A stretch of DNA of 64,000 bases, taken from positions 343,423 to 407,422 of the forward strand of contig CAWAAF010000010.1 of NCBI GenBank assembly GCA_963779905.1, read 5' to 3'. This stretch comes from an uncultured Chloroflexia bacterium. Its GTDB lineage: Bacteria; Chloroflexota; Limnocylindria; Limnocylindrales; CSP1-4. A model generated the notes under the pieces. The model made no database searches. It was given only the letters and a program-made list of their open reading frames with translations, and had not been told where the DNA came from. Position 1 is the first letter of the stretch. Every line of letters starts with the position of its first letter. The translations under genes were made by a program, and so were the position numbers. Below are positions 1-64,000 of the stretch, piece after piece.

Positions 1-1689
1 GCACTGCTCGCCGCCCGACTGGACGGCCTGCCCCGGGAGCAGAAGGCGCTGGTGCAGGCGGCGAGTGTGATCGGCGAGCAATTCGAGTCGGAGCAGCTAG
101 GTCAGCTGGCGGGCCGCGAGGTGGCGGCAGACCTGCAGGCGTTGGTGCGCGCAGGGTTCGTGCTGGTCGACCGCTCCGCTGGCCCGCGCGCCTATCGCTT
201 CAAGCACCTACTCGTGCGCGACGTGGCCTACGCCAGCCTGCCCAAATCAGAGCGCGCCCGACTTCACGAGGCTTTCGGCCACGCGCTGGAGGCAGCCTCG
301 GGCGACCGGCGCGCCGAGATCGTCGAGATTCTCGCCCACCACGCTGAGCGCACGCTGACGTTGTCGCTTGAGCTCCGCCAATCGGGGCCCAATCTACGCG
401 ACCGCGCGCTTCGGGCAACGGACCTCGCCCTGGAAGCCGGCCAGCGCGCGCTGGAGCGCGGCGACACGCAGAACCTGGCGCGCTTCATCGCCACGGGACA
501 GGCGGGTGTCGCAGCCGCTGGCGAGGCCGGCGCGCTGAGAGTGCCTGATCTCGAACTCCTCGACGCCCGCGCCGAGTCCGCGCGCGGCAACTTCAAAGGT
601 GCACGGGAGAAACTCGAAAAGGCCGCAGAAATGGCGCAGCAGGCCGGCAGGCGCGACCTGGAAGCGCGCGCGCTGCTCGACCTGGGTGAAGTCCTCGTTT
701 ACGCCCAGAGCGAAGAGGACATCCCCGCGACGGATGCAGCCATCGAAGCCGCCGACCGCCTGTTTGTCTCATTGGGCGACAGCAGCGGCCACCTCGAGGC
801 GCAAGGCCTGATGCTCGAGAAGCTGTTCCAGATAGGCCACATGGGCGAAATGCTCACTCGCGGAATGGCGTTGATCGACGAAGCGATCGCGTCGGGCGAA
901 CGACCGATTGCGGCCGGGCTCATGGCTCGCCTGGTATCGGCTGCGATTTGGAGCGGAGACACGCTTCTCGCCGAACAGCTGGCCGACCGCGCCGACGAAA
1001 TAACTGAGGAGCTGGGATTACTCACCGCTCGACGGTTGTCGCGCTTCTTCCGAGCGCGGTTGCATTGGGTAAAGGCTGAGTACGAAGTGGCCGAGCGCGA
1101 GCTGCGCGAGTTGATCGCGGACTACGCGTCGGCCAGCGACGGGCGATACGACATCGCCACGGCGCGGCTCATGGGCGAAGACCTGATCTCCATGCATCGG
1201 CTGGAAGAGGCGGAAGTACAGGTTGACTTCGCGCTGCAGCGCAGCGTTGAAACTGGCGATCGATGGAGCCGGACTGAGCTTCTGGCCTATAAGGCCTGGC
1301 TTGCAGCCAAGCGCGGAGCGCTCGATGAGGCCGACTCACTACTGGTCGAAGCGCACGAAACGCTGCGCCCGTCCGATTACGCGGCCATCGGCCAATACAA
1401 CGTGCTGCTCGGCCACGTCCGCGCCATGGAGGGCCGTGACGAAGAGGCTGAAACCGCGTTCCAGCGCGCCATGGAAGCGATAGACGTCAGCGACAACTGG
1501 TCATGGCAGATGGGCGCCCTTGATCTGGCGGAACTGCTGATCTCGCGAGGCCGGGTCAAGGACGCTCTGCCCTTGATCGAACGCGTCTCCGCCGCGGTCG
1601 AGGGCACGCAGCTCAACATCGTGCGCAACCATCTCGCGACGCTGCAGGCACAACTAGAAGGGCAGCCGGCTGCTCGCGGCAACCTCTGA
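1..1689 (+). CDS. C-terminal part (5'-truncated by window edge) of a large STAND/AAA-ATPase + TPR-type regulatory protein (AfsR/LAL/adenylate-cyclase-associated ATPase family); no HTH at the C-terminus
   Basis: The frame is open from nt 1 (ALLAARLDGLPREQKALVQAASVIG...). The motif 'FKHLLVRDVAYASLPKSERARLH' is typical of the helical end of AAA+/NB-ARC regulators. It is followed by a long TPR-like helical repeat region, with the stop at 1687-1689. Confidence 0.55.
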   Translation, partial: ALLAARLDGLPREQKALVQAASVIGEQFESEQLGQLAGREVAADLQALVRAGFVLVDRSAGPRAYRFKHLLVRDVAYASLPKSERARLHEAFGHALEAASGDRRAEIVEILAHHAERTLTLSLELRQSGPNLRDRALRATDLALEAGQRALERGDTQNLARFIATGQAGVAAAGEAGALRVPDLELLDARAESARGNFKGAREKLEKAAEMAQQAGRRDLEARALLDLGEVLVYAQSEEDIPATDAAIEAADRLFVSLGDSSGHLEAQGLMLEKLFQIGHMGEMLTRGMALIDEAIASGERPIAAGLMARLVSAAIWSGDTLLAEQLADRADEITEELGLLTARRLSRFFRARLHWVKAEYEVAERELRELIADYASASDGRYDIATARLMGEDLISMHRLEEAEVQVDFALQRSVETGDRWSRTELLAYKAWLAAKRGALDEADSLLVEAHETLRPSDYAAIGQYNVLLGHVRAMEGRDEEAETAFQRAMEAIDVSDNWSWQMGALDLAELLISRGRVKDALPLIERVSAAVEGTQLNIVRNHLATLQAQLEGQPAARGNL

Positions 1690-2292
1690 CAGCCAGCGCT
1701 TCTCGCGCTCCATCGTCGTCGCCGGGCCGTGGCCTGGTCTGACGCTCAAATCGTCGGCCAAGCGGGAAAGTCGGGCCAGCGAGTCAATGATCTGTTCCTG
1801 CGAGCCGCCCGGGAAATCAGTCCTCCCCCAGGCGCCGGCAAAGAGTGTGTCGCCCGTGAACAGCAGGCGCTCGTTATCGGCCAGCAGGCAGACCGACCCT
1901 TCGGTGTGGCCGGGCGTGTGCAGGACCTGGAGTTCGATCTCGCCGAAATTGATGCGCGATCCCTCGGCCAGGTCAATGGCGGGCACCGACGGCGGGATGG
2001 GAAACGGCGCATAGAGCGGACTCGGCGACTCCAGGCCGTGGCGATCGAGCGAGTGCGCGGCTATTTGCGCGCCGGTTGCCTGCTGAACTGCCGCGTTGTC
2101 GCCAATGTGGTCCCAATGGCGATGCGTGCTGACGATCAACTTGAGCGTCCAGCCACGTTCCGCCAGCGTTCGGGTCAGCCACTCGACGCACGGTGTCGCC
2201 GTGTCGATCGCGATTGCCTCGCGGCTGGCTTCGTCGCCCAGGACGTAGAGGTTGGTCGAGACTGGGCCGATCGCCCTCTGCAGCAGGTTCAC
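1654..2292 (-). CDS. MBL-fold metallo-hydrolase (hydroxyacylglutathione hydrolase/glyoxalase II-like)
   Basis: THRHWDHIG (HxHxDH) and downstream His/Asp metal ligands ('HTPGHTEGSVC', 'TGDTLFAG'). The N-terminal Arg-rich extension of the 330-aa ORF is rejected. A GTG start at 2292 overlaps the upstream stop (GTGA). Confidence 0.7.
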   Translation of the reverse strand: MNLLQRAIGPVSTNLYVLGDEASREAIAIDTATPCVEWLTRTLAERGWTLKLIVSTHRHWDHIGDNAAVQQATGAQIAAHSLDRHGLESPSPLYAPFPIPPSVPAIDLAEGSRINFGEIELQVLHTPGHTEGSVCLLADNERLLFTGDTLFAGAWGRTDFPGGSQEQIIDSLARLSRLADDLSVRPGHGPATTMEREKRWLSEVAASSRLPF

Positions 2293-2752: not shown

Positions 2753-3502
2753 ATGGCGGACACGACCTTCACCTGGTACGGGCATTCATGTTTCGAACTG
2801 CGCACACCGGGCGGCAAGGTCGTCCTGTTCGACCCGTGGTTCGGCAACCCGACGTCGCCCAAGAAGGCCAGCGCAGTCGACCGTTGCGACGTGCTGCTGG
2901 TGAGCCACGGCCACTTCGACCACATCGGTTCGCCGCCACGGCAGGTGGTAGACGCCGATGCGCTGACGATTGCCCGCGCCACCAACCCGACCTGGCCGTG
3001 CATGCACGAGATGTCCCTGTGGCTGGACGAGGTGCTCGTCGGCTGCGATGCCGAGGTCGTCGGCATGAACAAGGGCGGCACGTTCGACGCGGGCAACCTG
3101 CCGATCACGATGGTCCACGCCGACCACTCGGCCGGCGACTGGTCGGCGCCCGGTGAGGGGCCGCTGTACCTGGGCGAGCCGGTCGGCTTCGTGCTGGGCC
3201 TGGAGGATGGCCGCCGCGTCTACTACAGCGGGGACACCGAGGTCTTCGGCGACATGGCACTGATCGGTGAGATGCACAAGCCGGATGTGGCGATATTGCC
3301 CATCGGCGGGCACTACACCATGGGTCCGAAGGGAGCGGCGCGAGCGGCCAAGATGCTGGGCGTGAAGAAGGTCGTGCCGGTGCACTACGGCACGTTCTCG
3401 ATCCTGGCCGGCACGCCCGATGAGCTGCGCGCCGAGCTCGCGGCGATCGGCGCTGCGGTGGAGGTGGTCTCGCCCGAACGCGGAGTTGCGACGCAAATCT
3501 GA
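2753..3502 (+). CDS. metal-dependent hydrolase, UPF0173 family (MBL fold)
   Basis: 'MADTTFTWYGHSCFEL', 'VLLVSHGHFDHIG', 'VHADHSAGD'. Intact 249-aa ORF. Confidence 0.8.
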   Translation: MADTTFTWYGHSCFELRTPGGKVVLFDPWFGNPTSPKKASAVDRCDVLLVSHGHFDHIGSPPRQVVDADALTIARATNPTWPCMHEMSLWLDEVLVGCDAEVVGMNKGGTFDAGNLPITMVHADHSAGDWSAPGEGPLYLGEPVGFVLGLEDGRRVYYSGDTEVFGDMALIGEMHKPDVAILPIGGHYTMGPKGAARAAKMLGVKKVVPVHYGTFSILAGTPDELRAELAAIGAAVEVVSPERGVATQI

Positions 3503-4048
3503 TGGTCCGCGTGCGGGTGGCGGATCCGGCGGGCGATGCCGCTCGGGTCGCCGAGATCTACCGCCCGTACGTCGAGCAAACCATCATTTCCTTCGAAGAG
3601 GTCGCGCCGACGGCCGACCAGATGGCCGACCGAATGCGGTCGACGCTGGCCTGGACGCCCTGGCTGGTGGCCGAAGAGGACGGCCGCGTGGTCGGCTATG
3701 CCTATGCGACCAGACATCGCGAGCGCGCCGGCTATCGCTGGTCGGTCGACATCTCGGTCTACCTGGAGGCTGGCGCGTCAGGGCCGCGGGATCGGGCGAG
3801 CGCTATACGCGGAGTTGCTGGACCTGCTGCGCCGGCAGCGCTTCGTGAACGTTTACGCCGGCATTACCCTGCCCAACGACGCGAGCGTGGGGCTGCATCG
3901 CGCAATCGGAATGGAGCAGATCGGCACGTACGAGCGGGTCGGCTACAAGTTCGGGCAGTGGTTGGGGGTGACATGGTTCGGCATGCGCCTGGCCGACCCT
4001 GCCGACCCGCCCGCCGAGCCGATCCCGTTTCCCGAGCTCGACCGGTGA
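3502..4048 (+). pseudogene. GNAT family N-acetyltransferase (phosphinothricin-acetyltransferase-like) interrupted by a single-base frameshift near 3785
   Basis: The N-terminal half ('AEIYRPYVEQTIISFEEVAPTADQMADRM...WSVDISVYLEAG') lies in the frame that starts at 3502. The C-terminal half with the CoA-binding motif ('RQGRGIGRALYAELLDLL...VGLHRAIGMEQIGTYERVGYKFGQW') lies in the frame that ends at 4048. Joining them requires a 1-nt deletion around 'ggcgcgtcag'. Confidence 0.6.
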
Positions 4049-4226: not shown

Positions 4227-6026
4227 GTGCCTGTGGCCGGCCCTCCGGACGAAGCTGTGGAGGTCGCCGTGAAGCGCTTCTTCGTCCTTGTCGTCGTCAC
4301 CGGCCTCTTAGTTCTGTTGCCATCGTCGGGCGTGCTGGCCTCGTCGGAGGCGCTGGTCACCGTCGGCTCGCCGACGGGCACGACGCCGCAGAACCATCAG
4401 AACGAACCCGCTGTCGCGATGGACGCGAACCACACCAATGTGCTCGCCGCCGGCGCCAACGACTTCGTCGATTGGCAGCCCTGCCCGGTGGGTCGTCCCG
4501 AGCTCGACGGCAGCTGCCGTGGTGCCAACACCGGCGTGGGACTGTCGGGCGTGTACTTCTCGCTCGACAGCGGTAACACCTGGGTCCAGCCCACCTACAC
4601 GGGCTTGACCAGCCACGACTGCACGAACACGAGCTGCACGCCGCATGTCGGACCGATTCATACCCTGCCCAAGTACTTCGAAAATGGCCTGGCCTCCAAC
4701 GGCGACCCGGCTGTCGCCTTTGGCCCAAAGCCCGACGAGAACGGCAATTTCTCGTGGGACAACGGCTCGCGTCTCTACTACGCCAACCTGGCCGGTGCGA
4801 TCAACGCCGCTTTCCCGCAGATCGAGCCGTTCAACGGGTTCCTATCGCTCGCCGTCTCGCGGCTTGATGACGTCGCCAGCGGCAGTTTCGAAAACAAGGC
4901 CAACTGGATGGATCCGGTGATCGTCGCCACTCGCTCGAGCGCCACCGCGTTCGAGGACAAGGAACAGATCTGGGCAGACAACGCTGCCTCCAGCCAGTTC
5001 TTCGGCAGTGTCTACGTGTGCAACGACGAATACCGCAGCAACGGCCACGGCAACGCCTTCGCTCAGACCGTCAACGTGTACATCTCGCGCGACGGCGGTG
5101 ACACCTGGCGTACCAAGCAGGTCCGCCCAGCCAACTCCACCGCGCCCACTGGCTTCCATGGTGCCTGCAACGTGCGTACCGACAGCAACGGGGTGGTCTA
5201 CCTGTTCTACACGCACTTCGAGGTTGGGACGCCGGGCGACGGCGCCCACACGATGCAGAAATCGTTCGACGGCGGCCTGACGTGGACGCGGCCGCGCGAC
5301 GTACTGCCGGCCAACGACGGCTGCTTCAACATCGATCCCGTCTACGGACGCTGCGTGCTCGACGGCTACGCCGGCGCGCGCATCGACCTGTTCTCGATGC
5401 CAAGCGTTGACATCGCCAACGGCGCTCCGACCGGCAATGGCGCGACCAATGAGATCGTGGACGCCTGGAATACCGGCGTCGACGGGCTGAACCATGAAAA
5501 GACCGTTCTCTCATGGTCGACCGACGGCGGCGCAACCTGGGCCAACCCGATAAAGGTGTCTGAGTCCGGCGACCGCCCGCTCTATGCAGCGCCGGCGCTG
5601 GCTCCCGACGGATCGGCGGTATACGTGATCTACGAGGCCGTGACGAGCCCATGGCGCGACACGGACATGACGTCGCCGCGACCGTACCTGGGCGTGATGC
5701 GCACGGCCACGATCGGCGGCAGCGGGGCGCCTGGCAGCTTCTCGACCCAGCACAGAGGACAGGTTGGCGACCTGCGCGCCAGCTACCCCGGTCATGACAT
5801 CTACCAGGAGCGGGTGGGCGACTACGTCTACGCCGCGGCCAGTAATGACTATGGCGTGGGCCTGTACGCCGGGGTCCAGAACGCGGCCGTGTGCCCGGCC
5901 GTCCAGACTTATCGAGCCAACTCGATAGCGCTCGGCACGCTTGACCTGTCAACCGTTCCCTACCCGCCAACGGATTGCCCAGCAACGTGGGGCAACGTCG
6001 ACATCTTTGCGCGTGACCGGCCGTAA
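4227..6026 (+). CDS. secreted BNR/Asp-box repeat protein (sialidase/glycoside-hydrolase-like beta-propeller)
   Basis: N-terminal hydrophobic signal/TM ('FFVLVVVTGLLVLLPSSGVLASS'). Four or more Asp-box motifs S-x-D-x-G-x-T-W ('SLDSGNTW','SRDGGDTW','SFDGGLTW','STDGGATW'). Intact 599-aa ORF. Confidence 0.8.
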   Translation: MPVAGPPDEAVEVAVKRFFVLVVVTGLLVLLPSSGVLASSEALVTVGSPTGTTPQNHQNEPAVAMDANHTNVLAAGANDFVDWQPCPVGRPELDGSCRGANTGVGLSGVYFSLDSGNTWVQPTYTGLTSHDCTNTSCTPHVGPIHTLPKYFENGLASNGDPAVAFGPKPDENGNFSWDNGSRLYYANLAGAINAAFPQIEPFNGFLSLAVSRLDDVASGSFENKANWMDPVIVATRSSATAFEDKEQIWADNAASSQFFGSVYVCNDEYRSNGHGNAFAQTVNVYISRDGGDTWRTKQVRPANSTAPTGFHGACNVRTDSNGVVYLFYTHFEVGTPGDGAHTMQKSFDGGLTWTRPRDVLPANDGCFNIDPVYGRCVLDGYAGARIDLFSMPSVDIANGAPTGNGATNEIVDAWNTGVDGLNHEKTVLSWSTDGGATWANPIKVSESGDRPLYAAPALAPDGSAVYVIYEAVTSPWRDTDMTSPRPYLGVMRTATIGGSGAPGSFSTQHRGQVGDLRASYPGHDIYQERVGDYVYAAASNDYGVGLYAGVQNAAVCPAVQTYRANSIALGTLDLSTVPYPPTDCPATWGNVDIFARDRP

Positions 6027-6098: not shown

Positions 6099-6943
6099 CT
6101 AATTTGGGCTCCACCAAGTGACGCCGATGCCGGAGGGGCGGTCGTCCCAGCTGAAGCGGCCGTCGCGCTCGACCAGCCGCTCGCCGGCGAGCGCCACCAG
6201 CCGCTGATCCTTCGCGCTCCCCTCGCGCAGCCATAGCTGGCGGCGCGCCATCGCCAGGGCTTCGTCGGCCGACTCGAAGGTCGGCGGCGCGCGATCCACC
6301 CAGCGCACCTCGGGCAGCCGACCACGAGCGAACAGCAGAGCCAGCAGCTCGGGCATGGCCGGCAAGTCGGACGCGCGGCTCGCCGTGGACGTCGGCCCAG
6401 AACAGCGTGGCGACGGTCGTCATCGCGGCTTCGCCCATGACGGCGATGCACAGCCGGCCCGTCGCCGCTTCCAGGGCATCGACGAAAGGCCCGATCTCGG
6501 CGATGTCGTAGCCGACGTGGGCGATCAGCCCGACGTCGGCGGTCGGGGCTGCCGAAGCCATCGGCCAGCGCGTCTCGATCGTGCGGATGTTGGTGATACC
6601 CGCCGCGTCAGCATCTGCCGCAAGCGTCGATAGCATCGAGGGCGAAGGATCGACGGCGATGACCTCACGCGACGCGCAGCGCCATCGGCAGGGCGTACCG
6701 CCCGCCGCCGGCCCCGACATCGAGCCAGACGTCTTCCGGCTGCGCGAGATCCGAGCAGCAGATTGAGCAACTTCGTCGTCGGTCCGCCGAGGATCCGCGC
6801 GGAAGCGGTTGACCACCGGCGCGTAGAAGTCGGTCGGGTCGGCGACCTCGCGACAGCGCTCGACCTGCTCGTGGTCGGCGTCGACTCGCGCCGCTCCATG
6901 CGGCCAACAAGTGGTCGACGGCCGGGCGCAGAGCATCGCTCAT
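6099..6943 (-). pseudogene. class I SAM-dependent methyltransferase, heavily frameshifted (5 or more frame changes in about 850 bp)
   Basis: The SAM motif I 'VWLDVGAGGGRYALPMAL' and downstream segments are spread over three reading frames. The later segments are 'REVIAVDPSPSMLSTLAADADAAGITNIRTIETRW...GLIAHVGYDIAEIGPFVDALEAATGRLCIAVM' and a C-terminal 'LPELLALLFARGRLPEVRWVDRAPPTFESADEALAMARRQLW'. Confidence 0.5.
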
Positions 6944-6982
6944 TCCGGCAGCGTAAACGCGGCTGACTACACTCGACACGGA

Positions 6983-10709
<3,727 letters not shown>

Positions 10710-10720
<11 letters not shown>

Positions 10721-11387
10721 AGGCGAGGCTGTCAAGAATCGGCTGAGCCGGGATCGCGATGCCCTTATCAACCATCACCAGCAGCTGCTTGCCGTTTCGC
10801 GGCACGACATAGACGATCTTCGGGTCGCCCTGGCACACGGCGCCTTCGAGTGGCGAGGCATACTCCTCGGTGCTGGCCACCCGGATGCCATCCGAGGGTC
10901 CGCACAGGCTGTTGCCCGGAGCGCCCGGCGCAGTGATCTCGAATCTCTGCGAGACAATCCCGCCGACCGCACCCGACCCGGCGTCCGTTACCGCCAAATC
11001 CTTGTTCGCCTTGAGCCACGCCGCCCAGTCGGTTGGCACGGGCTGAATGCTGCCGTCGGTTAGGAACGCCTGGGTAGGAACGATAAAGAACACGCCCTCG
11101 CCGGCGCCCTTCGCCAGGAAAACCCCACCGTGCTTTTTCGTGTCGAAAACGCTCCACTTGCTGCCGCCGGTCTCCCCTGGGACCGTAAAGGTGAACGGAT
11201 CAACGAAGTTCATGGCGGCGTAATTGCCTGCCGCGAGCCCGCCATCTTTCAGCGCGGTGAAGCCGCTCGGCGCGGGCAATGCAGCGGCCGACGCACTCGG
11301 GGTGGGGCTTGCCGCGGCTGGTGCGCCGCAGCCCACGACTACAAGAGCCAACACGCTGGCGAGTCCGGCTGATCGGAACGCTGACAT
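10710..11387 (-). CDS. secreted lipoprotein of unknown function
   Basis: Signal peptide plus lipobox 'LALVVVGCG' after an internal Met (the upstream Arg-rich extension is rejected). Coherent low-complexity-free ORF. Convergent 11-bp overlap with the metH stop. Confidence 0.5.
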
Positions 11388-11568
11388 ACGAGACGCCTCC
11401 CTCTGCTCCCCCGCTGCCTCCCTGTGCTTCCAGAGTGAAATGAGGCCGGTGCCGGCGTCTGTCATCTGGGCGACACGTCGAGGGACAGCTCGTGGCTCGC
11501 GCCCAGACGCTCGTCGATGAAGCGGCCGCCAGCAGGAGGCCCTTGACGGCCTGGTCGCCAAGCCATAC

Positions 11569-11588
11569 ACTGAACCGTATGGTTCAGT
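11569..11588. promoter_or_regulatory. perfect 8-4-8 dyad ACTGAACC-GTAT-GGTTCAGT spanning the ArsR start codon; candidate ArsR/SmtB operator on a leaderless transcript
   Basis: Read directly. rc(ACTGAACC)=GGTTCAGT. The ATG (11579-11581) lies inside the dyad. Confidence 0.45.
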
Positions 11589-11938
11589 ATCCGAGGGCCC
11601 ACCTCGATGCCACTTTCGCCGCTCTGTCGGACGCGACGCGACGCGGTGTACTCGAGCGGCTGGGGCGTTCGGACGCTTCGATCACGGACCTCGCTGACAC
11701 CTTCCACATGACCCTGACCGGCATGAAGAAGCACGTCGGCGTTTTGGAGCAGGCGGGCCTCGTGACCAGCAAGAAGGTCGGGCGCGTTCGGACCTGCAAG
11801 CTCGGCCCGCTCCGACTCGAGGAAGAGACGGCATGGATCGAGAGTTACCGCCAACTCTGGGATTCACGCTACGACGAGTTGGACAAGGTCGTTGAGGAAC
11901 TCAAGCGGAAGGAGAAATCCGATGGAAACGACGGTTGA
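11579..11938 (+). CDS. ArsR/SmtB family transcriptional regulator
   Basis: 'LDATFAALSDATRRGVLERL...ITDLADTFHMTLTGMKKHVGVLEQAGLV' (HTH_20). The start ATG is embedded in a 20-bp perfect dyad (see findings). Confidence 0.8.
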   Translation: MVQYPRAHLDATFAALSDATRRGVLERLGRSDASITDLADTFHMTLTGMKKHVGVLEQAGLVTSKKVGRVRTCKLGPLRLEEETAWIESYRQLWDSRYDELDKVVEELKRKEKSDGNDG

Positions 11939-12404: not shown

Positions 12405-12463
12405 AGTCGTCGTAAGGCCTCCAAGGAAGGCATCGCCGCCTATTCGCCGCTTATCCTCCGCGT

Positions 12464-14086: not shown

Positions 14087-14184
14087 ATTCGGGCTTGTAT
14101 ACTCCGGCTCGGCCGGTCGCGCCGCGCTCACGACCCGTGCGGCTGGCCATCCCTTTTGTGGCCGCCCTGCCCTAGCGTGGTGCC

Positions 14185-15644: not shown

Positions 15645-15647
15645 CGC

Positions 15648-36448: not shown

Positions 36449-41120
<4,672 letters not shown>

Positions 41121-49637: not shown

Positions 49638-49705
49638 GGAAGGTGTGGGCTGGGGCACGTGGCGGATTGTGCCACCCGCAGCGCTTGACATGCAGCAAGT
49701 CAGCG

Positions 49706-49725: not shown

Positions 49726-49748
49726 GCAGTTAGGGAGAAGACACAGAA

Positions 49749-52683: not shown

Positions 52684-53171
52684 CGACCGATAACGACAAT
52701 CCGCGAATAGCCTTCGGCCTGGACGTCGGCGACGGCCTGGCGCATCAGCTCGACCTGGTTGGCAACGACTTCGTCCGACACCACCCGGTCGGGGCGGCGC
52801 GCGTTGTGAGCGTAGAAGGCTTGCTCGGGCAGGTCGAACAGGATCGCCACCACCGGCACGCCGTAGCGGGCGGCCAGCGCGCTCAGCCGGCGCCGGTTCA
52901 TCGGGCGCAGGTTGGTCGCGTCGACCACCGCCGTCAGTCGCCTCTTCAGGCGGCCATTCACCAGCAGCGCCAGGATGCGGAAGGCTTCGGCTGAGGCCGC
53001 CTGATCGTTCGGATCGTCGGCCACCCACGCTCGCAACTCATCCGACGAAACGACCTGATACCGCTCAAAGTGCTCCCGCGCGAAGGTCGTCTTGCCGGCG
53101 CCGGACGGGCCAACCAGCAGTACCAGCGCCGGATTCGGCAGGTTCAGTTCCACCGCCACATGGTGGGCCAT
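52680..53171 (-). CDS. P-loop NTPase/kinase-like protein (AAA_33/zeta-toxin/polynucleotide-kinase-like ATP-binding fold)
   Basis: 'LVLLVGPSGAGKTTFAREHFE...VVSSDELR...TAVVDATNL'. An internal Met start is chosen; the upstream part of the 262-aa ORF overlaps the MFS gene and is rejected. Confidence 0.6.
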   Translation of the reverse strand: MAHHVAVELNLPNPALVLLVGPSGAGKTTFAREHFERYQVVSSDELRAWVADDPNDQAASAEAFRILALLVNGRLKRRLTAVVDATNLRPMNRRRLSALAARYGVPVVAILFDLPEQAFYAHNARRPDRVVSDEVVANQVELMRQAVADVQAEGYSRIVVIGR

Positions 53172-53181
53172 ACTGCGCTCC

Positions 53182-54579
53182 GTGGAAGAGGCGCCGCAGC
53201 TGGATTCGGCCGAACTCCCGCTGATCGGCATTACCGACGAGCCGGTCGTCGTTGCCCGGCCGACGAAGGCTCTGCCTCTCTCCCATCTGCTGACGCTGTC
53301 GCTGTACTGGCTGGGCATCAACGCCATCTGGTCAGGCCTGCACGTCATCATCCTGCCCAAGCGGATGGAGGCGATGTTCGGCCTGGGCGAGGCCGGTCTG
53401 GCCCTGGCCGTGGTGACCATCGCCGGCGTCATCACCGCCGTCATCGTCCAGCCAACGGTGGGCACCATCTCGGACTACACCGTGTCGCGCTGGGGCCGGC
53501 GCAAGCCGTACATCGTCATCGGTGGCCTGCTCGACGTCGTCTTCCTGTGGGCGCTGGCCAACGCCGAGACGTACGTGGCAGTCGTCATCGCCCTTGTGCT
53601 GCTGCAGTTCTCATCGAACTTCGCGCAGGGCCCGTTCCAGGGCTACGTGCCGGACCTCGTGCCGGCACAACAAGTTGGCCGGGCCAGCGGCTTGATGGGC
53701 ATCATGATCATCCTGGGCTCGATGGCCGGCGTCGGCATTGCCGCCATCGGCTACAACCAGCTGTCAGCCGGCGCGTCGGCCGAAGTGGTTCGCCAGACCA
53801 TGTTCTGGCCCACGCTTGCCCTGGGGGTCATCGAGGTCGTGACGCTCGTTTTCGTCGCACTGAAGGTCGATGAAGGCCGCCCCGGACCGACGCGCGCCGG
53901 TCGCTCGTGGACAAAGATCGCCCTTTCGGCGTGGGGCACGGACCTGCTGCGCGAGCGCAGTTACGTGTGGCTGCTCATTTCGCGGCTGCTCTACCTGGCC
54001 ATGCCGGGCGTGATCAGCGGCTACACCCTGTTCGTGCTCGAGCGCTCGTTCCACCTGGATCCGGCTCAGTCGACGCCGTTCCTGCTGGGCATCGGCGCGA
54101 TCGTCGCCATCTCGACGATCATCGCCTCGCTGCCGGCGGCCCGGCTGTCCGACCGCATCGGTCGCAAGCGCGTCATCTACATCTCCTTCGCACTGTCGGC
54201 CGTTGGCATCGTCGGGATGGCGCTCTCGCCCAGTCTGCCCTTGACCCTGCTATCGGTGGTGCCTATCGGGCTGTCGGCGGGCGCCTTCCTGGCGGTCGAC
54301 TGGGCACTCATGACCGACATCATTCCCAAGGCGACAGCCGGCCGCTACATGGGCATTTCCAACGTGGCGACGGCGTCCGCCGGCCCGCTCGGGCTGGCTG
54401 TGGCCGGCGTCGTGCTCTACGTCGTTACGCGCGCCGGTGTGCCAACTCCCGACGGTGGCGACCTCGAAAGCATCTTTCTGGGCGTCGCCCCACGCGCGGC
54501 GATAGGCTCGATGCTGGTCTTCGTGGTCGGCGCGACATGGGCGCTGCGCAAGGTAAACGAGAAACGCCGAGAGGACTAA
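53182..54579 (+). CDS. MFS transporter (paralogue of 51276..52683), intact
   Basis: 'ISDYTVSRWGRRKPYIVIGGLLDVVFLWAL', 'LQFSSNFAQGPFQGYVPDLVPAQQVGRASG'. 465 aa. GTG start assumed. Confidence 0.8.
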   Translation: MEEAPQLDSAELPLIGITDEPVVVARPTKALPLSHLLTLSLYWLGINAIWSGLHVIILPKRMEAMFGLGEAGLALAVVTIAGVITAVIVQPTVGTISDYTVSRWGRRKPYIVIGGLLDVVFLWALANAETYVAVVIALVLLQFSSNFAQGPFQGYVPDLVPAQQVGRASGLMGIMIILGSMAGVGIAAIGYNQLSAGASAEVVRQTMFWPTLALGVIEVVTLVFVALKVDEGRPGPTRAGRSWTKIALSAWGTDLLRERSYVWLLISRLLYLAMPGVISGYTLFVLERSFHLDPAQSTPFLLGIGAIVAISTIIASLPAARLSDRIGRKRVIYISFALSAVGIVGMALSPSLPLTLLSVVPIGLSAGAFLAVDWALMTDIIPKATAGRYMGISNVATASAGPLGLAVAGVVLYVVTRAGVPTPDGGDLESIFLGVAPRAAIGSMLVFVVGATWALRKVNEKRRED

Positions 54580-55526: not shown

Positions 55527-57665
55527 TCATTCGGCCGATGACGGCAGTGCTAGGGGCTCGTCCGGCAGTGGCGCGGCGACCGGCACGGTAACCGGTAATT
55601 CGTGTCCCGCGCGCCAGCCCGGCTGTGGACCTCCAGCACGCCGCCCAGGCGCTCGGCGCGCTGGCGCATCGCGATCAGGCCGAGCTTGGTGCCCGACACG
55701 CCAGCTCGGGTCGAAGCCGGCGCCATCGTCCTGCACCGCCAGCTGGATCTGTCCGTTCGAGCTGGTCAGCGAGATGCGCGCCGACTGGGCATTGGCGTGC
55801 TTGACGATGTTGTGCAGCGCTTCCTGGCCGATCCGGTACAGCTCCTGCTCAGCTTCTGCGGGCGAACCGGCGCTCGAAGTCCGACTCGACGGCTGATCGA
55901 CATGCCGGTACGACCGGCGACCGCGGCGGCGTGGTTGCGCAGCGCCTGCGATAGACCATCAGTCTCAAGGCCGCGCGGGCGCAACTCGAAGATCAGCGCA
56001 CGCATCTCGGCCAGGGCGTCGCTCTGCAGCTCGCGCACCTCGGCGAACTTGGCGCGGGCGGCGACCGGGTCGCGGTCGAGCAGCAGCTCGACTGTGCTCA
56101 GCGTCAGGCCCATGCTGAAAAGTGCCTGGGTGACCGAGTCATGCAGTTCGCGGGCGAGGCTGGCCCGCTCTTCGTTGGCGGCCAGCTCGACTGATCGGCG
56201 GCGCAGGTCTTCTTCCAGGCGGCCGCGCTCCGTCACGTCGCGCAGCGAACCGTGGGCGCCGGTGAACTCGCCGTCCTCGACGATGCCGATCATGTTGATC
56301 TCGGCCACGATCGTGCCACCTGCCGCCAACGGCGTGCGTACGCGGAATTGCTGCTCGACGTTGGGGTTTTCGCGGATCTCGCGCCATGCCGTCTCGGCCT
56401 GGCTCATCGAGTCGGGCATGAGCAGTTCCACCCAGTAGCGGCCCAGCACCCGGTTGGGCGTGTAGCCGGTCAGTCGCTCCAGCGCCTCGCCGACGTAGGT
56501 CATGCGACCGTCGGCGTCGACGGCGTAGACGAGGTCGGGCGAGTGGTCGACCAGGTAGCGGTAGCGCCGCTCCGACGCCTCGAGCTCGTCCGTCCGCTCG
56601 CGCAGGGCCGTGTAGAGCTGGGCATTGCGGGCGGCGATCGACGCTTGGCGGGCGAGCTCTTCCATCAGCGTCACGTCGCGCTGGTCGATCGGCCGCGGCT
56701 CGCGGTAGGTGATGGCGAGCGTGCCGAGCACGTCGCCGCCCGGCCCCATCAGCGGCGCAACGATGACCGCGCCAAGCTCGAGCCGGTCTGGCGAGTCGTC
56801 GTCCGGGTCGTGTGGCCAGCGCGCATCCGAGCGGTAGTCGGAAGTCCAGACAGCCTCGCCCTCAAGTGCCGCGAGGCCGTTGATGCCGCCGCCCAGCGGG
56901 AAGCGCTGCGAGCGCAGCCAAGCCCGCAGGGCCGGCTCGGTGTGGCGGGCTGCGACCATCGGCCGCAGGACCGTCCTCTCCTCGTTGATCAGCGTCAGGT
57001 GCGCACCGTCGGAATCCAGCAGGTCGCTGGCCGTGTCGACGACTTCCTGCAGCACTTCGGCCGCGTCAGGCACGTCGACGATGCGGCGCGCGATTTCGTC
57101 GAGCGCGCGGTGGGCGACGAGCGCACGCGTCAGCTCAGCCGCCTGCTCGCGCAGCTGCTGCTCGGACTCGCGCAGGTGCTTCAGCAGGTGGTGGTTGTCG
57201 ATGGCCGCGGCGGCGTGGTCGGCCAAGGCGCGCAAGCAGGGTCAGTTGCTGCTCGTCGAACGCGTGCGGTTCGCTGGAGAAGACGCCCAGTACGCCAAGT
57301 GGCTTCTGGTCGGCGAACATGGGCGCCGCCGCCATCGAGCGCATGTTCGCGGCGTCGACGATGCGGTCGGCCACCGGATGGTGGGCGAACGCCGTGTCGC
57401 TCCGGTAGTCGTCGGTGTGAAGGAGCTGGCCGCGCGCCAGCGCCGAGCCGTACATGCCACGGCCAAGCGGAAGGCGCAGGTCACGCAGCAGCTGGCGCGC
57501 GTCCTGGCTGGCGATGCCTGCGTCGAAGGCGAAGCGCAGCTCGCCGGAGGCCTCGTCGTAGAGGTAGATCATCGCGCCGTCGGACTCGAGCAGACGCGCC
57601 GCCTCGCTGACCGCCTCCTGCAGCAGCTGGGCGTCGTGATCGGCCGTCCGCATGTCCGTCGCCAT
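55527..57665 (-). CDS. cytoplasmic sensor histidine kinase, GAF-GAF-PAS-HisKA_3-HATPase_c (DosS/DevS-like architecture plus PAS), about 4 frameshifts
   Basis: Two GAF-like blocks ('GAMIYLYDEASGELRFAFDAG...LGVLGVF', 'GAHLTLINEERTVLRPMVAAR...GVLGTLAITY'). PAS ('YRYLVDHSPDLVYAVDADGRMTYVGEALERLTGYTPNRVLGRYW'). H-box 'ASLARELHDSVTQALFSM'. 'MQDDGAGFDP' (G1 box) and C-terminal '...PVTVPVAAPLPDEP'. Confidence 0.8.
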
Positions 57666-57680
57666 GTGTGCCGGGTTGGC

Positions 57681-58370: not shown

Positions 58371-59922
58371 CTAAGCACAGCCGATGATCACGCCCTCGTT
58401 CGGCCTGAGGCTGAGCCGACCCTCGACGGCATCCGAGTCGCGATCGAGATGCGTTGACAGTGCGATCCGCCCAGCCGGGGCGCTCGTCACCAGATCCGAA
58501 CTGCCCAGATTCAAAAAGATCGCCAGCCGCCGGCCGCCTGCTTCGTGCCGCTCGTAGGCCAACAGGTCACCTTCCGCGGTAATCGGCGCCCAATCACCGA
58601 CAGCGAGAGCTGGCTCAGCCCTGCGCAGCGCGAGCAGCCGGCGATGGAGCTCGAGCATCGAGCCAGGGTCGGCGCGCTCCGACTCAACATTGATCGCGGC
58701 AACGTCATCACCCATTGGCAGCCAGGGCTGGCCGCCTCGTGAAGCCGCCGGTGGGCGAACCGTCCCAGCGCATAGGCGTGCGTTCTGGATCGCGGCTCTT
58801 GCCACCGCGCAGGCCTTCTGGGTCGCGCTGAGCTTCAAGCGGAATGTCGCCGTCGCACATGCCCAGCTCGTCGCCGTAATAGAGCGTCGGTGTGCCGCGC
58901 AGTGTGAGCAACAACATTGCGGCGACGCGCGCTTGTTCGGCACCCACACGGGAGGCGATGCGCGACCGATCGTGGTTGCCCAGCACCCAGTTGGGCCAAG
59001 CGCCATCCGGCAGCAGCGCTTCGTAGCGAGCGATGGCGGCGCCGATCCGTCGCGCCGACCAGGGCAGCGTGATCAGCTGGAAGTTGAACGGCAGTTGCAG
59101 GCCGTCCAGCGTCTTGCCGTAGAAGGTCACCAATTGTCTGGGCGGTAGCCAGATCTCACCGATCAGCAGCCGCCCATCGAATTCGTCGGCCACGCGGCGG
59201 ATGGCGGCGACGGGTACGTGAACGCGACGCAGGTCGCCCCAGGCGGGCTTATGTCCGGGACGCGTCGGCAGCAGCTCATAGCGTTTGGCCAGCAACTGGA
59301 TGACATCGATGCGGAAACCATCGATGCCACGCCGGAACCAGAAGCGCAGGACGTCGAGCATCGCCGCCTGCACGGCCGGGTTCCGCCAGTCGAGGTCCGG
59401 CTGCTCCTTCAGGAACGAATGGAAGTAGTACTGGCCGGTCGCTTCGTCCCACTCCCAGGCGCTGCCGCCGAAGTTGGCCTGCCAATCGTTGGGCGGTCCA
59501 CCTCCCGGCAAAGGATCGCGCCAGATATACCAATCGCGCCGCTCGTTGGTTCGGCTCGACCGAGACTCGAGGAACCATGGATGCAGGTTCGATGTGTGGT
59601 TCGGGACGAAGTCGAGCAGGACCTTGATGTCGCGTCGGTGGGCGGCCGCGATCAATGCGTCGAGGTCGGCCAGGTTCCCGAAAATAGGGTCGACGTCCAT
59701 ATAGTCGGCAACGTCGTAGCCGAAGTCGGCCATCGGCGAGCGAAATATCGGCGACAACCAGATGGCGTCGACGCCCAGCCAGGCGAGATAGTCGAGGCGC
59801 TGCGTGATCCCCGGCAGATCACCGATCCCATCGCCGTTGGCATCTTGGAAAGAGCGCGGGTAGACCTGATAGACGACGGCCGGTTGCCACCATGGCCGTG
59901 TTGTCGGTTGGTCGCCTCCCAC
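58371..59922 (-). CDS. GH13 alpha-glucosidase (oligo-1,6-glucosidase/trehalose-6-phosphate-hydrolase-like), one frameshift near 58720
   Basis: 'VVYQVYPRSFQDANGDGIGDLPGITQRLDYLAWLGVDAIWLSPIF', 'LLDFVPNHTS', 'GIDGFRIDVI', 'GEIW', 'VLGNHD'. The C-terminal beta-domain lies in a second frame. Confidence 0.8.
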
Positions 59923-60194: not shown

Positions 60195-62336
60195 CTACAG
60201 GCACACCGTCCCGGGCGGCGTACTTGTCGCGCTCACGCCGCCCGGCGCCGGTCGGCGAGCTGAGGGCATGTCGATCATGGCTCGCTCGGCGCCGTGCTCG
60301 GCGTAGATGCGTGCGGGCTGCATGCGGATCCACGCTCGTTCCACCTCGATCGAGCGCCAACCCTCAGGCAAGATGACCTTCCGGACGGGCCACGTATGCG
60401 GCTCGCCTGGTCCGACACGGATGCCCGGCAGCCCGAAGAGAAGTCCCATCAGGAAGCCGCCGATATTGGCGAAGAACGGCCCGGCCTTCGGCGTATCGGG
60501 AAACATCGTGGGCGACTGCTCCAGCGTCTGCATGAAGCGATCCGCGACCAGCTTCGCGTAGCCATCGTCGAGCAACCGCGCCGACAGGGCTCGATCGCCC
60601 GTCCATGCCGCCCACGTACCGTACAGCGGCGAAAGCATCGCGCTGCCGACGTACTTGGGCGCCAGGCGGAGGTAGTAGTCGAGTGTTGCTCGGGTAGTCC
60701 GCTCGTCCAACTCGTACCACATTGGAAACAGCGCAGCCAGCGGTCCGGGCGTGGCGCCCTTCTCCTCGGTGGGGCGATAGTCGCGGTGGCTCATGATCGC
60801 GCCGGTACGACTGTGGACCGGCAGGGTCAGGCCCGCGAGAACCTCCCGCCAGGCCGGCTGAACGAATTCCCCAAGCGCCTCAGCGCAGGCGATCGCCTCA
60901 GTCAAGACGCGCCGCGCACCCATCACCGTGAAGGCGTCGTCGACGCTCCATCGAACCCGCTCGGCGATGCCCATCGACTGGCGGAACTCGAAGCCGCGAC
61001 CGTTGCGCGCCACACGGCTGGCAATCCAGTCGGCGACGCCGTAGAGAATGCGCGCGGTGGCCTGCGACAGAAAGCGCTCATCGCCGGTGGCGTGGGCGAA
61101 CAAGGCGAAGGCCCAGGCGACATCGGGCGAGACGTGGTCCTCGTACCACGACGCCTTGCCGCTGCCGGGGGCAGCCTCTTCGCCCAGCAGAGGCCCGCTC
61201 TCCCACGGGAACTGGATGCCGCGACGGCCCTTCAACTTGGCGTTCTCGCGCGCCGAGTCGAGCACGGTCAGCCGGTATTCCAGCAGGCTCCGCGCCGCGT
61301 CGGGCTGAAGCAGCATGAGCGCCGGGACGTCGAAGAACTCTATGTCCCACATGACGTGGCCGTAGTAGTAGTGGTAGTCGCTCCACTGGGCGAGCCCAAA
61401 GATGGACGTGCTGGCAGGCGCGGACACGTGCACCGACGAATTCAGGTAGTAGAACGCGGCGTCGGCCAAGCGTTGCCAGCGGTCGTCGTCCGCAGTAATT
61501 AGGACGCGTCCCCGCCACAATTCCTGCCACTCGAGCCGGTTCTCTTCGCGCAAAGCATCGAAGCCGTCCGCTGCCGCCTTGCCGACGAGCCGGATGGCTT
61601 CACGGTCCGGATCGCTGTGGAGCTTGGATGGCACGAGGCTGGTGATCGCCCGAAGCCTGTACGAGCGTTCGGGTCGCGCGCGAAGACGTACCTCGGTGGC
61701 GATATCGCTCTCGAGGCCCCAATCGACGGGCCTGGCCTCGGCGCTCGAGTCCCCCAGGAACTCCGTCGCGAGGGCGGCCCCAACCGTCGCTTCGCCCCCC
61801 AGGGATTCCCAGGCCAGGGCGCCGTCGATGCCATCTTCGCGCGCGTCGGCCGGATCAACGGTCCGCTGGATCATTCGGCCGTGAATGCGGCCGGTATGAA
61901 CGATCGCGCGGAGTACCAGATCGCACGTCCGATTAACCCTTACCGCTACCTCCTGCACAACGATGGTTGGCTGCTTGCGACTGCAGAAGGTGAGGACCTC
62001 GACGCGTGCCTCGACGCCATCCGCGGTGAAGGTAAAGAGGGTGGTCAGCTCGCCATTCGAAAAGTCGTATGACTGCTCGACGAAGGCGGCCTGTTGCGGG
62101 GAGCTGGTGAGCCAAACGTTGTCCAGGCCAATGTCGCCGGCGAGCGGATACGGTGCTGGTGCAGCGGCCTCGATTTGCGCCTGCGGGTGCAGCCCCGTAT
62201 AGCCGTTGACCATCGCGATCCCGGGTAGTAGCGGGACGTCCAGCACGCGCAGCCCGATCAGACCATTCGAAACGTAAGCGGGAAGGTCACCGCGGCCGCC
62301 GCTGGTGACAGGCGGCGGGCTGATTGGATTCGACAC
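60195..62336 (-). CDS. glycoside hydrolase family 65 protein (maltose/trehalose/kojibiose-phosphorylase-like), intact 713 aa
   Basis: 'YYYGHVMWDIEFFDVPALMLLQPDAARSLLEYRLTVLDSARENAKLKGRRGIQFPWESG' matches the conserved GH65 central (alpha/alpha)6 catalytic block, recalled from maltose phosphorylases. Confidence 0.75.
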   Translation of the reverse strand: MSNPISPPPVTSGGRGDLPAYVSNGLIGLRVLDVPLLPGIAMVNGYTGLHPQAQIEAAAPAPYPLAGDIGLDNVWLTSSPQQAAFVEQSYDFSNGELTTLFTFTADGVEARVEVLTFCSRKQPTIVVQEVAVRVNRTCDLVLRAIVHTGRIHGRMIQRTVDPADAREDGIDGALAWESLGGEATVGAALATEFLGDSSAEARPVDWGLESDIATEVRLRARPERSYRLRAITSLVPSKLHSDPDREAIRLVGKAAADGFDALREENRLEWQELWRGRVLITADDDRWQRLADAAFYYLNSSVHVSAPASTSIFGLAQWSDYHYYYGHVMWDIEFFDVPALMLLQPDAARSLLEYRLTVLDSARENAKLKGRRGIQFPWESGPLLGEEAAPGSGKASWYEDHVSPDVAWAFALFAHATGDERFLSQATARILYGVADWIASRVARNGRGFEFRQSMGIAERVRWSVDDAFTVMGARRVLTEAIACAEALGEFVQPAWREVLAGLTLPVHSRTGAIMSHRDYRPTEEKGATPGPLAALFPMWYELDERTTRATLDYYLRLAPKYVGSAMLSPLYGTWAAWTGDRALSARLLDDGYAKLVADRFMQTLEQSPTMFPDTPKAGPFFANIGGFLMGLLFGLPGIRVGPGEPHTWPVRKVILPEGWRSIEVERAWIRMQPARIYAEHGAERAMIDMPSARRPAPGGVSATSTPPGTVCL

Positions 62337-62420
62337 ACAACGACGATTGGTTCGAACGCCTGAAACGGGCTAGCGACGACCCCAGCACGATGTGCCGTTC
62401 TTCTCGCAATCAGCACGGTG

Positions 62421-64000
62421 TCAGACGGGCACGGCCTCAGCCCCCAGCCAATCCTGGAGTGGTCGCACGTCGTCTGTCTGCCTGAGAACGCCGGGCTCCA
62501 GGGTTGCGGCTGCAGCCAGCGCCGTGTCGATCGAGGTCAGGCACAGAATGCCGTCGGCCAGCGCGGCGCGCCGGATCTGGCCGGCGTCGGCGACAGCCGC
62601 GGACTCGGGCGAGGGCGTGTTGACGACCAGCGAGACGTCGCCTGAGGCGATCGCGTCGAGCACGGAACGGCGGCCAGTGCCGTGGCCCTCCTCCCCTACG
62701 CGCGTCAGCGTTTCGACGCGCGTGACCCAACATCGCCAGCGCCCGTGCCGTGCCGGCGGTTGCGCAGAAGCGGTAGCCGGCGGTTGCGAGCGACGCCGCC
62801 AGTTCAGCCAGCTCACTTTTGTCGGCATCCGCCAGCGACAGCAGCGCAAGCGGCGCGGCACTGCCGGCGCGGCGGGCCGGCGTCAGCCCAGCCGCCAGGA
62901 GCGCCTTGGCCATGGCGACGCGGCCGTCGGTGTGAAGGCCAATGACCTCCCCCGTCGACTGCATCGCCGGGCCCAGCAGTGGGTCCACGCCACGCAGTTT
63001 CTGGGTCGAAAAGACCGGCGCCTTGACCGCGACCAAAGGCCGCGACGGCACGACACCGTCCGCCCATCCCATGTCCGCCAGCCGCTCGCCCAGCGCGACC
63101 CGCGTCGCCAGCTCGACCATCGGCACGCCGGTCACCTTCGAGATGAAGGGCACGGTGCGCGATGCGCGCGGGTTGATCTCGAGCAGGAAGACGCCGTCGT
63201 CGCGCACGATGAATTGGCCGTTGATCAGGCCGCGCACGCCCACCGCCCGGGCAAATCGTGAGAACGACTCGACGATCAAATCCTGGTCGATCTCGGCTCA
63301 ATCGCTGCGGTGGATACACGCCGATTGAGTCGCCCGAATGAACGCCGGCCCGCTCGACGTGCTCGATGAGCCCGGGAATGAGCACGGTTTCGCCGTCGGT
63401 GACGGCGTCGACGTCAACTTCGATGCCGCTCATGTAGGCATCCAGCCGGACCGGGTGCTCCTGATCGACGGCGATGGCGCGTTCGACCAGCGCGGCGAGA
63501 TCCGTTGGGCCATAGGCGAAGGCGACGGCCAGGCCACCGATCACGTACGACGGCCTGACGATGACCGGGTAGCCGATGCGCTCGGCCACGACCAGCGCTT
63601 CGTCGGCCGAGGTGGCCATGCCGCCTTCCGGCTGCGGGATGCCCAACCGCTCGACCAGGCCGGCAAAGCGCGTCCGTTCCTCCGTCTGGTCGATTGCCGC
63701 AATGTCCAGGCCGCGCAGGCGGATGCCGTCAGCGGCTAGAGCCGGCGCCAGGCCAAGTGGCGTCTGGCCACCGAACTGGACGAAGGCATCCGGCCGGCCG
63801 GCAGTCGGTTCGCGCTCCACCGACAGGACCTCGAGCACGCTTTCGGGATCGAGTGACTCGAAGTAGAGCCGGGAGGAGGCGTCGAAGTCCGTCGATACGG
63901 TTTCCGGGTTCGAATTGATCATGATTGCCTGCCAGCCGAGGCGACGCAGGGCGTCGGCGGCCTGCACGGCGCAGTAGTCGAACTCGATGCCCTGGCCGAT
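62421..64000 (-). CDS. carB: carbamoyl-phosphate synthase large subunit CarB, 3' about two-thirds (second ATP-grasp half + MGS-like domain); 5' end beyond window; 2 or more frameshifts
   Basis: The frame is open to the window edge ('IGQGIEFDYC...AIMINSNPETVSTDFDASSRLYFE...'). '...IGYPVIVRPSYVIGGLAVAF', '...LLEINPRASRTVPFISKVTGVPMVELA', 'LSLADADKSELAELAASLATAGYRFCATAGTA' (MGS), and C-terminal 'VVNTPSPESAAVADAGQIRRAALADGILCLTS' in another frame. Confidence 0.85.

Follow-up and report, generated by a model that had tools for sequence, protein, structure and literature searches.

Single-base insertions that break reading frames in a Chloroflexota metagenome contig are very probably long-read consensus errors

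A 64,000-nt stretch from an uncultured Chloroflexota lineage (contig CAWAAF010000010.1, positions 343,423 to 407,422; hereafter the window) carries about 85 frameshifts, or about 1.3 per kb. Judging from the assembled sequences, we consider it highly probable (about 0.95) that these frameshifts entered the consensus of a long-read metagenome assembly as errors and are not mutations of the organism, a soil bacterium similar to Ca. Limnocylindrales. This reading is preferred because the spectrum of the events, the selection on the hit genes, the privacy of the lesions, a comparison between sequencing technologies and the 556-kb source contig all agree with it. The most telling property of the events is an excess of insertions over deletions (54 to 2), which was absent from an earlier interpretation of the same DNA (hereafter the sequence-only reading). 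There is no biological novelty in the frameshifts, and the genes concerned (metH, carB, lhr-nei, the cyanophycin cluster, ggt and the others) are ordinary and are to be read as intact.

Results

Number and placement of the frameshifts

The reading frame was followed along the window (66-71% G+C) with a codon-usage Viterbi path over six frames and a non-coding state. A plot of G+C at third codon positions (GC3) was dropped because its strand assignment was too noisy, and the Viterbi path was used instead. The path consisted of 165 segments, with frequent same-strand frame switches between abutting segments. Individual events were placed with a frameshift-aware protein-to-DNA dynamic programme, in which open reading frames (ORFs) of relatives were aligned to the window. 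The references were contigs from relatives (L001, L002-L081, L082-L084 and L088/L089) and a set of SulP homologues. Relatives L002-L081 were among the matches listed for an Lhr contig scan, with the closest listed at 84% identity. Two SulP sequences, P0268 and P0255, were left out as sulP references: their alignments contained many discordant events, and the sequences themselves look like corrupted predictions. An event was accepted if the references covering the site supported it, and about one third of the events were located only to within ~20 nt.

In total 56 frameshifts were placed by alignment to orthologues from relatives. About 30 further junctions were seen with the Viterbi path and Pfam only, in regions that have no close references (the S53 peptidase, quinone oxidoreductase (QOR), PD40 kinase, GAF kinase, S8 C-terminus, MFS-1, amylase and two small ORFs). 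The count of at least about 70 frame changes in the sequence-only reading is therefore right as a lower bound, if slightly low. In the stitched translations Pfam domains continued uninterrupted over the junctions of metH, GNAT, ggt, M20, QOR, both cyanophycin-synthetase genes and cyanophycinase, and likewise over those of sulP, GT87, nei, lhr, carB, the GH13 amylase, an MFS transporter, the S53 propeptide and the GAF sensor kinase. Scans of the window for tRNAs and Rfam families recognised no RNAs.

Size and direction of the events

Every one of the 56 placed events was a change of exactly 1 nt, as had been proposed, and no frame-breaking indel of several nucleotides was found among them. Insertions made up 54 of the events and deletions two (in nei and in an HDAC-family gene). 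The metH junction can be read directly: the frame switches at ACC GGG c CAG, with a single surplus base in ACCGGGCCAG, which confirms the example given in the sequence-only reading. Its second example, a supposed 1-nt deletion in a GNAT acetyltransferase gene, proved to be an insertion, since the alignment scored 745 as it stands, 1463 with one base removed and only 759 with one added.

Sequence context of the insertions

Within each site, every single-base removal was scored against up to four references. Most of the removable bases were isolated single bases. Ties between two adjacent different bases (GC, CG, TG, AC) were frequent, since the codon stays synonymous whichever of the two is removed. 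As a calibration, random bases were inserted at 260 clean reference-covered sites and the identical analysis was run. A run of two or more identical bases was compatible with 12 of the 38 well-placed events (32%), as compared to 50% under random insertion (p = 0.04), and a run of three or more with 4 of the 38 (10.5%), as compared to 16%. Two-different-base ties were found in 45% of the cases, with 28% expected. An association with homopolymers is absent and there is, if anything, a depletion, so the dependence on homopolymers or GC-rich runs that had been suggested for the window was not borne out.

A classical platform error in homopolymers or GC runs, of the kind produced by 454, Ion Torrent or Nanopore R9-type sequencing, would find some support in the metH example, which lies in CCGGGCC, in the events at 29887-89, 39014-16 and 44828-30, which touch runs of three, and in the correlation of the local event rate with G+C content (rho = 0.64, p = 0.02). 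The run-compatible fractions nevertheless stay below those of random insertion, the removable bases are mostly isolated and the events are insertions. Homopolymer miscalls on 454, Ion Torrent and Nanopore R9-type platforms are mainly deletions or contractions. We regard this type of error as very unlikely to account for the window.

No common motif was found within 7 nt on either side of 31 precisely placed insertions, the best 4-mer being present at 8 of the 31. This 4-mer, AGTC/GACT, was expected near 1.6 sites (Bonferroni p ~0.02 within k = 4). The signal is weak, does not match GANTC and may be due to chance or be a by-product of the inserted base making codon-atypical words.

Distribution along the window

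For the distribution, the 34.7 kb that references covered, with 52 validated events, were compared to a Poisson process. The gaps without events reached 2.6 kb at most (p = 0.65) and no 1-kb bin held more than five events (p = 0.47), both as expected from such a process. The contrast between clean and heavily hit genes is mostly sampling noise, because both the gaps and the dense bins fit Poisson expectation. The BNR, GH65, M16 and MFS-2 genes were indeed clean, as the sequence-only reading had stated, and the non-random distribution that it had derived from such contrasts does not hold at the level of single genes. On a larger scale it does, as the rate of validated events was 2.7 per kb at 12-31 kb and 0.9 per kb elsewhere, a difference of about 3-fold. 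The mild overdispersion that was detected (variance/mean 1.4-1.8, p = 0.04-0.06) reflects this broad regional difference, which correlates with local G+C.

Conservation and selection in the hit genes

Stitched translations along the Viterbi path contained no stop codon in ~19,000 codons. Seven stops were flagged, all of them either outside coding sequence or at places where the reference itself is frameshifted. The junction-spanning Pfam domains were all complete. Repaired MetH matched intact methionine synthases of ~1,250 aa, the annotated ones being from "Candidatus Limnocylindrales / Chloroflexota" and mostly from soil metagenomes, and it was 86% identical over 99% of its best match, the intact 1,249-aa P0001.

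The ratio of nonsynonymous to synonymous substitution rates (dN/dS) was determined against L088, an 86% identical congener in which the GNAT and methyltransferase genes are intact. It was 0.20 for the methyltransferase (five frameshifts), 0.12 for GNAT (one) and 0.085 for the N-terminal part of metH (one), matching the intact neighbour genes (0.06-0.20). Relaxed selection was not seen in the hit genes by this measure, which is pairwise over ~14% divergence and not specific to the terminal branch. No insertion sequence (IS) elements were noticed in the window, although no search aimed at them was made.

Comparison with relatives and other assemblies

None of the events in the window was shared by any of the relatives compared (up to 15), nor by L088 or L089. 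Lhr offered the widest comparison. When lhr was scored with three intact references, 7 of the 13 'MFD' metagenome-assembled genomes (MAGs) among the matches listed carried private frameshifts, in all ~17 events, of which ~15 were 1-nt insertions, at other sites than in the window. Lhr frameshifts were found in 0 of the 14 relatives with short-read-style contig names among the matches listed, the class being assigned from the names themselves (k141, k127, NODE etc.). One of the MFD MAGs (MFD01275.bin.c.5, OY969885.1; L016, positions 9898-12890) was released as a complete chromosome and has ten frameshifts in its 4.7-kb lhr. Contig L089 (1-1900) is 96.2% identical to the window at the nucleotide level over 1.9 kb, and its BNR gene is broken six times where that of the window is intact. 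In the congener L088, an ENA contig, the last 2.7 kb (13660-16300) hold ~26 private frameshifts in metH, none of them at the sites of the window. The lesions are thus private to each assembly, and where they occur depends on how the DNA was sequenced and assembled, not on phylogeny.

The MFD MAGs, to which the closest relatives listed belong, were assembled from Nanopore reads only, with Flye and one round of Medaka, and for those of lower coverage the authors mention that Nanopore-associated errors are possible (PMC12313526). The same group reported that Nanopore R10.4 bins below ~40x need short-read polishing and that indels lead to frameshifted gene calls (PMC9262707). For the window itself, the protein P0121, identical to its BNR protein, is encoded on a 556-kb contig at NCBI and ENA, a length typical of long-read soil metagenome assemblies, and its cluster mates are from ENA assemblies whose contigs are named in the Flye style (contig_N). 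The source is most likely a Nanopore-only assembly of the Flye/Medaka type.

Neither form of the metH junction, with the extra base or lacking it, matched any metagenome contig in an exact search. A search of the protein collection for an uninterrupted CphA segment of the same species returned nothing above 89% identity. A metagenome scan with GH65 gave three distant loci only, so that the island at 50-62 kb stands without a close reference, its junctions being those of the Viterbi path and Pfam.

Genuine ongoing pseudogenisation, with mutations fixed in the lineage as in the reductive evolution of Mycobacterium leprae, has in its favour that many genes are hit, some of them repeatedly (the methyltransferase five times in 0.85 kb, cphA nine times), that the events are denser at 12-31 kb and that two of them are deletions. 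Genuine bacterial gene decay leaves nonsense codons, indels of several lengths, a deletion bias and truncations or IS insertions, and bacterial mutation spectra are said by Mira, Ochman and Moran (2001) to be deletion-biased and to include multi-nucleotide indels. The window shows 54 insertions to two deletions, all of 1 nt, with no nonsense codons or larger indels and without the homopolymer or repeat association of slippage mutations. The genes metH, carB and lhr are among those hit, no site is common to any relative, including the 86% congener, and lesions of the same type are private to other long-read assemblies and missing from the short-read-named relatives. The sequence-only reading had held that clustered, heavily hit loci would favour decay and that raised dN/dS would support it; the clusters are compatible with Poisson expectation, the methyltransferase with its five hits has the dN/dS of an intact neighbour, and the hit genes (0.09-0.20) stay within the intact range. 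Pseudogenisation is highly improbable on this evidence. That indel errors were left uncorrected in a long-read or low-coverage assembly, the explanation preferred in the sequence-only reading, is upheld by the private lesions, the lack of nonsense codons and of relaxed selection, and the technology control.

Programmed +1 ribosomal frameshifting or transcriptional slippage, by which the genes would be functional as written, would explain why nearly all events need the identical correction of one skipped nucleotide, but we give it practically no credence, as no slippery motif or downstream stop is shared (best k-mer at 8 of 31 sites), the old frame is often open for hundreds of bases (e.g. ORF 6911-8974, which continues past 7658), the sites are conserved in no orthologue, there are no homopolymers to support slippage, and equivalent private events occur only in other long-read assemblies.

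Frameshifts gene by gene

The GNAT acetyltransferase gene (3500-4045, plus strand) has its insertion at 3771-3778 (3772 in comparison to L084). Pfam Acetyltransf_4 spans the junction, and the orthologue in L088 is an intact protein of 181 aa. The BNR/sialidase-like gene (4248-6011, plus strand) served as an intact control. In the methyltransferase-like gene (6105-6955, minus strand) the five insertions, at ~6366-70, 6670-71, 6746-53, 6767-68 and 6893-95, were identical against L014 and against L083, and appeared against L088 as single unpaired bases at 6366, 6671, 6753, 6767 and 6893; intact orthologues of 278-280 aa are present in L088 and L083. The B12-dependent methionine synthase gene metH (6986-10714, plus strand) has 1-nt insertions at 7656-62, 8828 and 9114-15, agreed by seven intact references and spanned by Pfam matches. 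The gamma-glutamyltranspeptidase gene ggt (12428-14083, plus strand) has insertions at 12708-10, 13166-67, 13317-18, 13336-41, 13901-02 and 13973-75, agreed by L001, L008, L015, L082, L083 and L084, with G_glu_transpept spanning the junctions. Between 14179 and 15629, on the plus strand, a small ORF has one insertion at ~14335 (against L014 and L084) and a PrsW-like membrane protein gene two, at ~15076 and ~15587 (against L082).

The S53 (sedolisin-type) peptidase gene (16572-18296, plus strand) has about four junctions of the +1 type in the Viterbi path (~16661, 17068, 17197 and 18098). Their positions are approximate. This gene has no close reference, and the Pfam domain Pro-kuma_activ runs across the junction at aa 340 of the stitched translation. 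The stitched translation also has an eight-glycine run (DPLGGGGGGGGLSQ) near 17900, which may be either a true linker or an error in the length of a repeat. The M20 peptidase gene (18316-19493, minus strand) has insertions at 18438 and 19186, placed against L015, L019, L083 and L084, and Peptidase_M20 spans both junctions. Three clear +1 junctions were seen in the QOR gene (20050-20987, plus strand; ~20571, 20769 and 20911; Viterbi, no close reference), where ADH_zinc_N and ADH_zinc_N_2 span the junctions, and one or two further candidates lie in its N-terminal part.

The second, Mur-ligase-type cyanophycin-synthetase-like gene (20990-22600, plus strand) has insertions at 21410, 21482, 22047-49, 22162-71 and 22340-43, placed against L002 and partly against L009 and L083, and a sixth junction at ~21145 from the Viterbi path only; Mur_ligase_M spans a junction. 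The sulfate permease gene sulP (24254-25940, plus strand) has insertions at 24854, ~25692, ~25843 and ~25878, the consensus of alignments with P0245, P0243, P0252, P0272 and P0284, and the Sulfate_transp and STAS domains span its junctions. The cyanophycin synthetase gene cphA (25955-28800, minus strand) has nine insertions, at 26041, 26175-76, 26347-48, 26842-44, 26892-93, 27463-65, 27608-12, 27960-61 and 28549-50. Each of these was backed by all of the four to six references that cover it, plus L083. The cyanophycinase (peptidase S51) gene (28744-29611, minus strand) has one insertion at 29221, found with six of six references plus L083, and Peptidase_S51 spans it.

Taken as a locus, 20990-29611 is a cyanophycin cluster composed of cphA (minus strand), the cphA-like gene (plus strand) and the S51 cyanophycinase (minus strand). 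The trio is syntenic in L083, L002, L016 and L009 and is split in the window by a 3.3-kb insert, which consists of an unknown Ala/Glu-rich ORF and sulP. This part (22600-25900) is missing from the otherwise syntenic L002 and L009. Between the cphA-like gene and the Ala/Glu-rich ORF lie 729 nt (22574-23302) that have no coding signal in any frame and no Rfam matches.

The GT87-family membrane glycosyltransferase gene (29667-30446, plus strand) has insertions at 29887-95, 29973-74 and 30136-37, each with 10-11 of 11 references. A PD40-repeat/membrane/HisKA_3 sensor kinase region (31284-35278, plus strand) has about five junctions (~32794, 33487, 33958, 34371 and 34506) in the Viterbi path only, with Pfam domains flanking them on either side. 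In the Fpg/Nei DNA glycosylase gene nei (35296-36072, minus strand) one insertion at 35642 and one deletion at ~35489 were found with five of five references; for the latter the one-deletion model scored 695 and a double insertion 659. The large helicase gene lhr (36463-41100, minus strand) has insertions at 36523-24, 36529-32, 37449-50, 39013-17 and 40889-90, with 12-15 of 15 references, and the DEAD and DEAD_assoc domains span its junctions. An apparent 2-nt event at the C-terminus of lhr resolved into two insertions 6 nt apart (score 620, as compared to 589 for one deletion). The position of nei directly downstream of lhr (35296-41100, minus strand) is kept in the relatives that were fetched, and the gene order presumably resembles the Lhr-Nei arrangement of actinobacteria.

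The S8 subtilase gene with Ig-like C-terminal repeats (41219-44268, plus strand) has one insertion at ~41571-83 (41582 against L016) and two or three extra junctions from the Viterbi path only (~43791, 43958). On the minus strand, within 44280-46267, an alpha/beta hydrolase gene has an insertion at 44826-30 (against L002 and L016) and the HDAC-family deacetylase gene a deletion at ~45598 with seven of seven references (deletion model 774, double insertion 730). The second M16 peptidase gene (46806-48264, minus strand) has an insertion at 47792, against L002 and L009, and the first copy (48336-49640) is intact. An ArsR-type HTH protein gene (49622-50844, plus strand) has an insertion at ~49959 against L009, with the Viterbi junction at 49967.

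In the Viterbi path, MFS transporter 1 (51297-52687, plus strand) has one +1 junction at ~52332, spanned by MFS_1 and MFS_2, and MFS-2 (53172-54576) is intact. The GAF/PAS/HisKA_3 sensor kinase gene (55530-57677, minus strand), which has no close reference, has about five Viterbi junctions (~57229, 55893, 55857, 55702 and 55594), spanned by GAF_2 and HATPase_c. The GH13 alpha-amylase-family gene (58380-59880, minus strand) has one +1 junction at ~58737, and its Alpha-amylase match (5-427) spans the corresponding aa 381; GH65 (60267-62309) is intact. The segment 50900-62400, with two MFS paralogues, a small P-loop kinase, a response regulator, the GAF/PAS histidine kinase, the GH13 amylase and GH65, is missing from L002 and L009. 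Finally, the C-terminal half of carB (62436-64000, minus strand), which runs off the window, has insertions at 62718-19 and 63298 against L009, and CPSase_L_D2 and MGS span the junctions.

These counts agree for the greater part with the sequence-only reading. It had given three frame changes for metH, two or more for carB and four or more for sulP, where three, two and four were found, and about four for lhr, six or more for cphA and about five for ggt, where the numbers came to five, nine and six. Its view that nei, the S8 and S53 peptidases and both sensor kinases are hit was likewise supported (two in nei, one validated and two or three Viterbi junctions in S8, four in S53 and about five in each kinase), as were the four to five shifts in the 0.85-kb methyltransferase gene (five). 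The four to five shifts claimed for QOR were recovered as far as the three clear junctions go, the one or two N-terminal ones being seen by Viterbi and Pfam only. A membrane ORF of ~0.4 kb with four to five shifts was not identified in the window; three shifts lie in the 0.78-kb gene of the GT87 membrane protein.

Discussion

The preferred explanation is that extra single bases (~85, with a few missing ones besides) were written into the consensus at ~1.3 per kb. Such errors would arise during long-read consensus building or polishing at low effective coverage. As the proximate cause we tentatively propose low local coverage together with collapsed strain microdiversity, which we hold to be possible but somewhat short of probable. 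Both alleles of a single-nucleotide polymorphism (SNP), mostly at a third codon position, or misaligned neighbouring variants, may then have been kept as adjacent bases. A retained-allele model of this kind would lead to an insertion bias, to ties between two different bases at degenerate positions, to a lack of homopolymer association and to regional variation. The main alternative to it is plain low-coverage noise, with a caller that is biased to insertions in GC-rich sequence. The excess at 12-31 kb may be due to a coverage dip, to strain diversity or to GC-rich basecalling.

Several points weigh against a consensus error. The case is built on assembled sequences, and the source platform is inferred. 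No same-species assembly was found over any of the frameshifted genes, as nothing exceeded ~89% identity and L089 covers BNR only. An extremely recent inactivation may be compatible with dN/dS values taken over 14% divergence. The insertion-biased, non-homopolymer profile is not that of textbook Nanopore homopolymer deletions. In addition, the mild overdispersion, the 3-fold regional difference and the weak AGTC/GACT enrichment are accounted for in part at best.

With regard to novelty, a technical version would be a systematic, insertion-biased, non-homopolymer error mode in Nanopore-only Flye/Medaka MAGs of GC-rich, microdiverse soil populations, an error mode that current MAG quality checks may not flag. 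This is considerably more likely than the biological versions. In these the extra bases would truly be in the DNA, either as +1 disruptions tolerated through recoding or as a fresh burst of single-base insertions that left no other traces of decay, and we find such an origin hardly credible.

The relevance of consensus errors in the window lies in database quality and not in biology. At ~1.3 frameshifts per kb, gene callers split or truncate most genes longer than 1 kb. Records of this type inflate pseudogene counts, depress coding density and seed protein databases with fragments, and anyone who scans such contigs for "novel short ORFs", "gene decay" or "split genes" is bound to meet false positives. 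Homopolymer-aware polishers or filters would leave insertion-biased, non-homopolymer errors unfixed. The same signature is present in public sister long-read assemblies, including the complete-chromosome MAG. Among the top protein-collection matches of a 261-aa CphA segment (P0393-P0512), almost all were fragments of 220-450 aa, as compared to ~900 aa for intact CphA, and they sit on contigs of tens of kb to more than 1 Mb. The same artefact would seem to be widespread, because the best CphA matches are fragments on long contigs.

Comparison with known systems

The window is most like the indel errors of long-read-only assemblies, as revealed by protein-length tests of the IDEEL type, in that 1-nt indels fragment conserved genes in an assembly-specific manner. 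As in these, the lesions are missing from short-read assemblies of relatives, and they are expected in low-coverage, unpolished Nanopore bins (PMC9262707, PMC12313526). It differs in that the textbook errors are homopolymer-centred and rich in deletions, whereas 96% of the events here are insertions and are not enriched in runs. The rate of ~1.3 per kb is also high in comparison to an R10.4-era consensus.

A second likeness is to frameshifts from collapsed alleles. In a diploid trypanosome assembly from PacBio reads, collapsed allelic variants introduced indel errors and apparent frameshifts; these were non-homopolymer indels of uneven density, located where nearby variants shift the read alignments, and the effect vanished on phasing or error correction (PMC8445201). 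The window fits this case in its two-different-base ties, which are more frequent at third codon positions than expected (45% vs 28%). That system is a diploid eukaryote, whereas strain microdiversity of a soil population is presumed here.

The pseudogenes of reductive evolution (Mycobacterium leprae, Shigella and recent endosymbionts) resemble the window in the large number of conserved genes that are broken, in some cases at several places. They differ from it in their nonsense codons, multi-nucleotide indels, relaxed selection and shared lesions, none of which the window has, and its events are biased to insertions and not to deletions.

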